Source of the DNA: Candidatus Moranbacteria bacterium UBA2282
GTDB taxonomy: Bacteria; Patescibacteriota; Minisyncoccia; Moranbacterales; UBA2206
DNA length: 64,000 nucleotides
Reading direction: 5' to 3'
Assembly (NCBI GenBank): GCA_002345745.1
Contig: DDWQ01000019.1
Span: forward strand, 83 to 64,082
Shown: piece by piece, positions 59,559-59,625 of the stretch
Layout: every line of letters starts with the position of its first letter
How positions within the stretch are numbered: the stretch's first letter is position 1
Notes under the pieces: generated by a model
What the model was told of the DNA's origin: nothing
Seen by the model: only the letters and a program-made list of their open reading frames with translations
The model's database searches: none
Program-made: the position numbers and the translations under genes

Positions 59559-59587
59559 ATATTAGCAAACTTTATAAAGTTTGTCAA
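59559..59587 (-). promoter_or_regulatory. promoter TTGACA-17-TAATAT whose spacer is an 18-bp perfect palindrome CAAACTTTATAAAGTTTG; apparently leaderless
   Basis: rc(59582-59587)=TTGACA and rc(59559-59564)=TAATAT. The palindrome is at 59566-59583 with a half-site copy at 59598-59612. The ATG lies 6 nt after the -10. Confidence 0.55.
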
Positions 59588-59625
59588 TATATTATTTCTT
59601 TATAAAGTTTGAATTGCGAAGATGC

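Follow-up and report, generated by a model that had tools for sequence, protein, structure and literature searches.

A class II Fic gene with an N-terminal helix-turn-helix domain and conserved palindromic sites in its promoter: a predicted autorepressor of Candidatus Moranbacteria

Results

The HTH-Fic gene and its promoter

The 64,000-nt stretch of DNA analysed here (the window; Candidatus Moranbacteria bacterium UBA2282, contig DDWQ01000019.1) carries a gene for a 310-residue protein, hereafter HTH-Fic, in which a predicted XRE-type helix-turn-helix (HTH) domain is fused to a Fic domain, and whose promoter holds two related sites, O1 and O2, at which negative autoregulation by the encoded protein is strongly supported by comparison of homologous loci. 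The whole feature, comprising O2, the -35 hexamer, O1, the -10 hexamer, the ATG and the HTH-Fic gene itself, lies on the minus strand, which corrects a first-pass annotation of the same DNA on this point. Read along that strand from 59612 to 59550, the order is TC, AACTTTATAAAGAA (O2), a gap of ATAATATA, TTGACA, AACTTTATAAAGTT (O1), TGC, TAATAT, GATGGT and ATG (Table 1). The promoter TTGACA-17-TAATAT claimed by the first-pass annotation was borne out at 59587-59559 of the minus strand, where with its TG extension it scored 10 of 12 consensus matches in a promoter scan, and the ATG does stand 6 nt beyond the -10 hexamer, as that annotation had said, with GATGGT between TAATAT and 59552-59550.

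The palindrome required more adjustment. A perfect 9+9 palindrome is indeed present, but it is not exactly the spacer, as had been described, since it measures 18 bp against 17 nt, includes the CA of the -35 hexamer and ends one base before the -10 hexamer. Its outer two bases on each side are promoter elements (the CA of the -35 and the TG of the extended -10), and its left flank is variable in distant homologous loci, reading cta or cga there. The sequence upstream that had been called a half-site repeat is also real, but it is more than a half-site, with 14 of the 18 bases matching (CAAACTTTATAAAG, 59611-59598), and the gap to the palindrome is 14 bp, or 28 bp start to start. O2 keeps its left half and centre intact (AACTTTATAAA), and its right arm is degenerate.

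We rejected the palindrome as remarkable by itself: the window is 64% A+T and contains three perfect palindromes of at least 18 bp, and one or more perfect 18-bp palindromes arose in 46% of windows simulated with a first-order Markov model. The 14-mer CAAACTTTATAAAG occurs three times in the window (two via the palindrome and one upstream) against 0.09 expected, a count reached in 0 of 100 shuffles, and the decisive evidence against chance is comparative, drawn from the homologous sequences described below. A role of the palindrome as a terminator was likewise rejected, as it is AT-rich and loop-less and lacks a T-run, and an Rfam scan of the window found no known RNA element in the promoter interval, its two matches, RNase P RNA and one tRNA, lying outside it.

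The HTH-Fic protein

The start codon is secure because the frame is closed by a TAA four codons further 5', the intervening codons offer no other start, and the N-terminus, M-x-x-x-[DE]-K-L, is kept across the family. Residues 161-255 match the Pfam Fic domain (PF02661; E 1.5e-17, 64.6 bits, above the cut-off of 24), and in a 20-sequence alignment (A1) the active-site residues H237, F239, D241, G242, N243, G244, R245 and R248 are invariant. Since the active-site motif and the inhibitory-helix motif are both invariant, the latter lying N-terminal to the core (Table 1), the protein is by its motifs a class II, auto-inhibited Fic, and Fic enzymatic activity is predicted. The closest solved relatives are the class II protein CdFic (4x2e, E 7.7e-19) and FICD, over the Fic core only; a Foldseek search of the PDB similarly returned Fic-core matches only (FICD, CdFic), and no solved structure combining an N-terminal XRE-type HTH with Fic turned up.

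An AlphaFold2 (AF2) model with an overall predicted local distance difference test score (pLDDT) of 82, and of 82-92 over residues 1-50, places N-terminal helices at residues 3-14, 18-25, 29-36 and 44-58, with the helix-turn-helix formed by residues 18-36 and Ser28 at the N-terminal end of the recognition helix. Of 23 aligned N-terminal domains of the family, 22 match the Pfam family HTH_3 (PF01381; best E 3.4e-10), and a precomputed HTH_3 annotation exists for most of 120 listed relatives. A profile of the HTH domain matches solved XRE-type proteins, among them 2kpj (E 7e-6), 9k3w (PbsX family), 434 repressor, HipB and P22 C2, and the N-terminus gives a weak NCBIfam match to the RstR repressor family (residues 1-45, E 1.1e-6). 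The N-terminal XRE-type HTH named in the first-pass annotation is thus supported at the family level by HTH_3, by the profile and by the predicted fold, but not by the HTH_3 score of the window protein, which remains below the cut-off; a whole-protein Pfam scan gave, as its only HTH match, a weak one to HTH_24. Relatives form more than 240 distinct full-length clusters at 90% identity, of about 307 aa, and where named they belong mostly to Candidatus Moranbacteria or Patescibacteria.

Conservation of the operators across homologous loci

We compared 32 non-identical homologous loci (43-92% protein identity) drawn from a species-representative genome collection, a metagenome collection and exact-protein look-ups; a metagenome scan with the window protein gave 16 loci, and nine exact-protein look-ups of HTH-Fic relatives enlarged the sample. 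Their hosts include Moraniibacteriota, Peribacteria, Uhrbacteria, Saccharibacteria, Kaiserbacteria and other metagenome-assembled genomes (MAGs). An O1-type palindrome lies just 5' of the ATG in all 32 loci, and O2 is found in all 31 that have enough upstream sequence. The suggestion that orthologous promoters might lack the palindrome, which the first-pass annotation had offered as a way to refute autorepression, was checked directly, and the palindrome was kept in every case. O1 is identical to AACTTTATAAAGTT at 14 of 14 positions in 19 of the 32, the remainder being symmetric variants (AACTATATATAGTT, AACTCTATAGAGTT) or single changes, and information content is near-maximal over exactly the 14 O1 columns, lower at the -35 and -10 hexamers and near zero in the remaining intergenic region. 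Four-fold synonymous sites of the window gene and its homologues are only 10-39% identical (24.8% when pooled for pairs below 65% amino-acid identity), and because synonymous sites are saturated, the conservation of the operator reflects selection rather than recent ancestry.

The sites are also specific to this promoter. A search with three operator variants, allowing at most one mismatch, gave 44 matches at -100 to -1 of the HTH-Fic start codons in the 32 loci against one in the other ~121 kb of these loci, none in 348 kb of 71 control loci encoding Fic proteins without an HTH, and, in the 64-kb window, none beyond the HTH-Fic promoter site. The sole match outside a promoter is an isolated O2-like copy, ctatggtAACTTTATAAAA, at ~1353 of locus L084, 648 nt 5' of the HTH-Fic start.

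The position of the sites relative to the promoter is similarly constrained. O1 lies between a -35-like hexamer and a TAnnnT -10 element, which follows 3 nt after it, in 26 of the 32 loci; the hexamer abutting its 5' side is in most loci TTGACA, TTGACT, TTGACG or TTTACA, and TGn directly follows its 3' side in 21. Of 31 loci, 30 have a start-to-start spacing of O2 and O1 of 28 bp (mostly) or 29 bp; a Flavobacterium MAG deviates, with 19 bp. In three loci of one clade (L008, L099 and L100), the promoter is instead TTTACA-17-TATAGT or TATAAG, O2 occupies its spacer and O1 lies at about +1, with the spacing still 28 bp; because this spacing survives the promoter shift, it is set by the binder and not by the promoter. 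A two-fold symmetric site within the core promoter is thus conserved, with O1 as the spacer site in 26 of the 32 loci and O2 in three more.

Covariation of operator and recognition helix

In all 22 loci whose proteins carry Ser28 (Gly-Val-Ser28-Phe, GVSF), O1 has T5/A10, and among the ten with Thr28 (xVTF), O1 reads AACTATATATAGTT in eight, AACTCTATAGAGTT in one and AACTTTATATAGTT in one. These operator changes are two-fold symmetric, T5/A10 being replaced by A5/T10 or C5/G10, which points to a two-fold symmetric dimer as the binder. A tree restricted to residues 63 onward groups the Thr28 proteins in a clade, within which L100 is nested and has reverted to Ser28 together with a T/A-type operator; L009 represents an independent Thr28 lineage whose operator is half-changed. 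Other substitutions in the helix (F32L, N34R and W36I/M, in L007, L100 and L104) occur without a change in the operator. Position 5 of O2 equals position 5 of O1 in 30 of 31 measurable loci, and position 10 of O2 does not track O1; judged by its sequence, O2 would be a weak or half site at best.

An all-against-all comparison of neighbouring open reading frames (ORFs) in 28 loci found no recurring partner gene, whether an antitoxin, a second regulator, the 299-aa Fic protein encoded next to HTH-Fic in the window or a NUDIX protein. A terminator-like hairpin followed by a T-run lies shortly 5' of O2 in nine of 31 loci, and because of these terminators we consider the HTH-Fic gene its own transcription unit. 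Since the operator covaries with residue 28 and no partner gene is conserved, the encoded protein is by far the most likely binder of the sites.

Position of the transcription start

The distance from the -10 hexamer to the ATG is 6 nt in 15 loci, including the window, 7-8 nt in three and 9-11 nt in four. The sequence of this gap varies freely though its length is kept, which has the look of a spacing constraint, and the start codon is ATG in all 32 loci. Elsewhere in the window, a TTGnnn-17/18-TAnnnT element ends exactly 6 nt before the ATG of three further genes (18220-19404, 27248-27670 and 29492-30058). From this promoter geometry, a leaderless HTH-Fic mRNA, as proposed in the first-pass annotation, seems to us the likelier outcome, the kept 6-nt gap with its varying sequence speaking for it. 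The missing Shine-Dalgarno motif carries no information on this point and was rejected as evidence, as only 2 of 55 window genes have a Shine-Dalgarno-like motif and the sequences upstream of start codons are A/T-rich.

Autoregulation could also be real while the window mRNA has a leader, with transcription also or mainly beginning further 5', either at weak promoters that overlap O2 or as read-through of the upstream NUDIX gene, so that O1 would lie in the 5' untranslated region. Several observations that weigh against a leaderless start fit this arrangement: five loci have leaders of 19-36 nt, one of them (L094) with a GGAG motif; O1 lies downstream of the -10 in three loci; genes of this genome do without Shine-Dalgarno motifs anyway; the window has weak promoter-like sites at 59620-59591 and 59613-59586, with 9 of 12 matches each; and no terminator is predicted between the NUDIX stop codon (59626) and the HTH-Fic promoter and ATG, so that read-through is possible. 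Against it, no other promoter of the interval comes near the one formed by the consensus -35, the 17-nt spacer and the extended -10, the gap is exactly 6 nt in 15 loci with varying sequence, and nine loci have terminators just 5' of O2. On balance we regard a leadered mRNA as unlikely, though it is the strongest of the alternatives considered here.

A further promoter of this general appearance lies elsewhere in the window, where an inverted repeat, TATACTGATA-tac-TATCAGTATA (~8585-8625, minus strand), is directly followed by TAGAAT, 7 nt and the ATG of gene 7555-8580; this is another operator-like palindrome, at a promoter that may be leaderless.

Table 1. Coordinates of the HTH-Fic gene, its promoter and operator sites, and the other long palindromes of the window
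Feature	Position	Strand	Basis or remark
O2, upstream operator AACTTTATAAAGAA	59609-59596	minus	about -57 to -44 from the predicted start; 28 bp before the start of O1
Gap from O2 to -35, ATAATATA		minus	
-35 hexamer TTGACA	59587-59582	minus	consensus; promoter scan
O1, 14-bp palindromic operator core AACTTTATAAAGTT	59581-59568	minus	occupies 14 of 17 spacer positions
Extended -10 TG (TGcTAATAT)	59567-59566	minus	TG flagged by promoter scan; next base C
-10 hexamer TAATAT	59564-59559	minus	promoter scan
GATGGT, 6 nt separating -10 from ATG		minus	
ATG start codon	59552-59550	minus	predicted transcription start at its A (59552), 7 nt past the last -10 base, from promoter geometry
18-bp perfect palindrome (9+9) CAAACTTTATAAAGTTTG	59566-59583		strandless
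HTH-Fic gene, 310 aa: XRE-type HTH, linker helix, class II Fic domain (predicted)	58620-59552	minus	ORF list
N-terminal HTH domain coding region, residues 1-58	59379-59552	minus	AF2 model, family profile, HTH_3
Predicted recognition helix S28-FVAFNNWW-36	59445-59471	minus	AF2 helix 29-36; Ser28 is the covarying residue
Inhibitory-helix motif S107-N-K-I-E-G112	59217-59234	minus	fits (S/T)xxxE(G/N), N-terminal to Fic core; invariant in alignment A1
Fic active-site motif HPFSDGNGRIGR, residues 237-248	58809-58844	minus	canonical HxFx(D/E)GN(G/K)RxxR, AMP-transfer type
Other long perfect palindrome, 18 bp, AAAATATTGCAATATTTT	16214-16231		
Other long perfect palindrome, 20 bp, ATCTAAATTTAAATTTAGAT	45383-45402		

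Discussion

Our findings suggest that HTH-Fic is a single-chain repressor-enzyme, in which an N-terminal XRE/Cro-type HTH is joined to an auto-inhibited class II Fic domain of the AMP-transferase type. In the proposed mechanism, a dimer would grip O1 through its two HTH domains, between the consensus -35 and the extended -10, and a second dimer would occupy O2, a weaker site with one good half-site 28 bp upstream, probably cooperatively, given that the spacing of the two sites is fixed. The promoter would be of the sigma-70 type, and its consensus -35, extended -10 and optimally long 17-nt spacer should make it strong without an activator. Since O1 covers 14 of the 17 spacer positions, a bound dimer must compete with RNA polymerase, so that occupied sites would exclude the polymerase. 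A potentially toxic Fic protein would thereby limit its own level, and transcription from this promoter would begin on the A of the ATG or beside it, yielding a leaderless mRNA. Autorepression through the operator, the model put forward in the first-pass annotation, gains support from the conservation in 32 of 32 loci, the covariation with residue 28 and the lack of a partner gene, with repression itself deduced from the geometry of the sites; taking dimers on both operators and the leaderless start together, we hold the whole model to be probable. The purpose of such a circuit would be to limit the dose of a potentially toxic enzyme. For SoFic, another Fic protein, cloning of the wild type under a single lac operator failed, and the authors blamed this on the toxicity of leaky expression (PMC12249575).

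Apart from the points on leaders and read-through given above, several findings count against this model. The 28 bp between the centres of O2 and O1 correspond to ~2.7 helical turns, a non-integral number, so that cooperativity from the same face of the helix is not obvious. The right arm of O2 does not covary in Thr28 loci, and O2 of L003 has A5 despite Ser28. The covariation counts are phylogenetically dependent and come down to ~3 independent events, not 32, which makes them suggestive but no proof. Our promoter calls presume that promoters of the candidate phyla radiation (CPR) obey the sigma-70 consensus, and the window protein scores only 14.2 bits against HTH_3 (PF01381; cut-off 23, E 0.047, residues 15-43).

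This last score would also suit a rival in which the palindromes are bound by another regulator of the host and the Fic HTH binds elsewhere or not at all, as would the fact that AT-rich palindromes are recognised by many XRE-type regulators. The sites nevertheless accompany the gene across several phyla and unrelated contexts with no conserved neighbour, the operator covaries with residue 28, nested reversal included, and the motif is missing from the rest of the window and nearly so from the flanks of homologous loci (one match in ~121 kb), all of which make a foreign binder very unlikely. We consider it just as improbable that the protein activates its own promoter, or activates from O2 and represses from O1 as lambda CI does at PRM: two unequal sites at fixed spacing, with O2 lying 5' of the -35, would accord with such an arrangement, but with its consensus -35, optimal spacer and extended -10 the promoter would need no activator, O1 as the strong site sits within the spacer, so that a protein bound there should block the polymerase, and O2 is itself the spacer site in three loci. 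The weakest alternative, that the palindromes are a promoter element (an unusual spacer with an UP-like element) or the end of a recombining or mobile element, conserved because they travel as a mobile cassette, draws on the many different contexts of the gene, the location of O2 at ~-57 to -44 in the UP-element region and the strong conservation of the entire promoter, yet we find it the least credible of all, since spacers are normally unconstrained and the changes here are two-fold symmetric as expected of a dimeric binder, recent transfer cannot give 14/14 identity when synonymous sites are saturated, the 28-bp spacing of O1 and O2 was kept where the promoter hexamers moved onto O2, and the O2-N17-O1 pattern has no match in a viral contig collection.

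The closest characterised precedent for the predicted autorepression is CccR of Yersinia pseudotuberculosis, which likewise joins class II Fic and HTH domains and, acting at palindromes that lie at the -35 and -10, represses its own promoter (PMC9755527). Both proteins combine a class II Fic domain bearing the inhibitory (S/T)xxxE(G/N) helix with a DNA-binding HTH in one chain, and both have a palindromic site in their own promoter, dimer binding being known for CccR and predicted for HTH-Fic. The CccR HTH is, however, a C-terminal winged helix, whereas that of HTH-Fic is N-terminal and of the XRE/Cro type, and on the strength of this difference HTH-Fic is an independent fusion, outside the CccR family, that would work like CccR. 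The operators differ as well, since CccR binds 10 bp-N26-10 bp with its reading helices 70 A apart, while HTH-Fic has a contiguous 14-bp operator and a site 28 bp upstream, and CccR is a type VI secretion system effector, whereas nothing suggests secretion of HTH-Fic. The PDB entry 7xux, which we take to be CccR from its title, length and release date only, matches HTH-Fic by sequence over the Fic core alone.

In its working, the predicted switch resembles the Cro and CI repressors of phages 434, P22 and lambda, which share its HTH fold class by profile matches, use a 14-bp two-fold symmetric operator with conserved outer bases and an AT-rich centre, place tandem unequal sites on the promoter and carry a specificity residue at the start of the recognition helix. 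Unlike these repressors, which have a small dimerisation domain, the HTH-Fic repressor is fused to an enzyme of ~250 aa, has no divergent promoter or lysogeny switch, and has sites spaced 28 bp apart, longer than the roughly 20-24 bp of phage operators. A Fic/Doc-fold protein limited by a repressor on palindromes in its own promoter is likewise the principle of Phd/Doc, VbhA/VbhT and FicA/FicT, and the inhibitory Glu-containing helix of class II Fic proteins is the counterpart of the class I antitoxin. Unlike these type II toxin-antitoxin pairs, HTH-Fic has no separate antitoxin gene and combines predicted DNA binding and inhibition in one chain, and we rejected membership of the Phd/Doc and FicT/FicA type on the lack of an adjacent recurring ORF in 28 loci; an NCBIfam VbhT match in the window belongs to the neighbouring 299-aa Fic only and is far below its cut-off.

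The Fic core of HTH-Fic also matches the PADLOC candidate PDC-S04 (E 4e-44) and the defence system SoFic (E 5e-33), over residues ~75-293 only. SoFic and CbFic2 have an N-terminal DUF4172 domain and a C-terminal winged HTH, in contrast to the N-terminal XRE HTH of HTH-Fic; membership in SoFic was rejected with 33.5 bits against the cut-off of 550 for the NCBIfam equivalog NF046030, and in comparison with these systems we saw no defence phenotype or defence-island context for the window gene. CbFic2 is a precedent for the regulation of a Fic enzyme through DNA binding (PMC10628234), a binding with no known sequence specificity, and occupancy of the HTH-Fic operators may accordingly be coupled to Fic activity. 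In an extended form of this idea, two dimers fixed on O2 and O1 at a distance of 28 bp would maintain auto-inhibition of the Fic domains until a trigger such as phage infection or stress frees the protein, leading to derepression and AMPylation; such a one-polypeptide module resembling a toxin-antitoxin or abortive-infection system, with promoter DNA as the 'antitoxin', would be widespread in the CPR. We mention it as a speculation that is doubtful on present grounds.

The 'mobile mystery proteins' A and B (TIGR02612 and TIGR02613) form a two-gene pair that also combines an HTH protein, the A member, with a Fic-family protein, and in HTH-Fic the two are fused in one chain. Membership in the B family was rejected (E 1.7e-9, 37.8 bits against a cut-off of 124.4). 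The pair is uncharacterised in the literature that we searched, in which we also found no paper on Fic proteins with an N-terminal XRE HTH and none using the term 'HTH-Fic'.

To our knowledge, almost nothing has been established experimentally about transcription factors and their sites in the CPR or Patescibacteria. The locus described here offers a defined set for this radiation, consisting of a protein, a 14-bp operator, a second site at fixed phasing and a consensus promoter, together with a natural specificity switch in which Ser28 goes with T:A and Thr28 with A:T, and the system could be tested in E. coli with short oligonucleotides. Self-repression by a DNA-binding domain fused to a class II Fic protein appears to have arisen more than once, in CccR and, as predicted, in HTH-Fic, and this repetition fits the view that even auto-inhibited Fic enzymes need to be kept at a low dose. 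The 6-nt gap from -10 to ATG provides a testable case of a leaderless mRNA in a lineage whose ribosomes are reduced and which makes hardly any use of Shine-Dalgarno motifs. Autoregulation as a principle is ordinary; the comparative evidence in this instance is unusually clean, and the pair of protein and operator is experimentally tractable.

Neighbouring genes and other features of the window

The gene upstream of HTH-Fic (59626-59919, minus strand) encodes a 97-aa NUDIX protein that covers positions 3-74 of the 134-position Pfam model and may be truncated; a full NUDIX gene stands beside HTH-Fic in L103 too, and the window has a second NUDIX gene at 61865-62458. In two loci of the Thr28 type, L006 and L102, a reverse-transcriptase (RVT_1) gene lies just upstream of HTH-Fic, an AbiEii gene is found close by in L100 and a gene for a CopG-type antitoxin immediately precedes HTH-Fic in L106, and these four surroundings may be mobile or defence-island contexts. 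A phage or plasmid origin of HTH-Fic was rejected, as the viral contigs lack the operator pattern and tblastn against plasmids and phages returned only relatives of the Fic core at no more than ~37% identity, without finding the HTH-Fic gene.

Directly downstream of HTH-Fic lies a second class II Fic gene (57470-58369, minus strand), whose 299-aa product has the motifs SNAIEN and HPFCDGNGRIGR. Its promoter is a perfect TTGACA-17-TATAAT (58428-58400, within the region 58382-58444) bracketed by two copies of the 12-nt direct repeat ATAAATTCACTA (58444-58433 and 58393-58382), and homologues in CPR contigs also have promoter repeats, ATAATATTAAC twice in L108 and TTAGTGAATG/CATTCACTAA in L110. A conserved C-terminal tail of the family, ...NAARRQNIPAFREKGVWKI, resembles by eye an excisionase-type HTH; the tail had no Pfam match and no PDB-profile match, and its hhalign comparison with HTH_17 was not significant. 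This may be a second self-regulated Fic gene. A distant relative with 30% identity, found on L111 (MT835732.1, a phage-like contig from human faeces), has an N-terminal HTH_17 domain (E 6.9e-7) fused to Fic and a promoter, TTGATA-17-TATAAT, set amid GCCGATA/TATCGGC inverted repeats (~530-620 of the locus), which hints that fusion of an HTH to Fic, accompanied by promoter repeats, arose repeatedly.

Of the 55 called genes of the window, 54 are on the minus strand, and the plus strand is 21.5% C and 14.3% G. The RNA genes found by Rfam are a bacterial class A RNase P RNA at 13176-13591 (minus strand, 116 bits) and a tRNA at 63235-63305 (minus strand).

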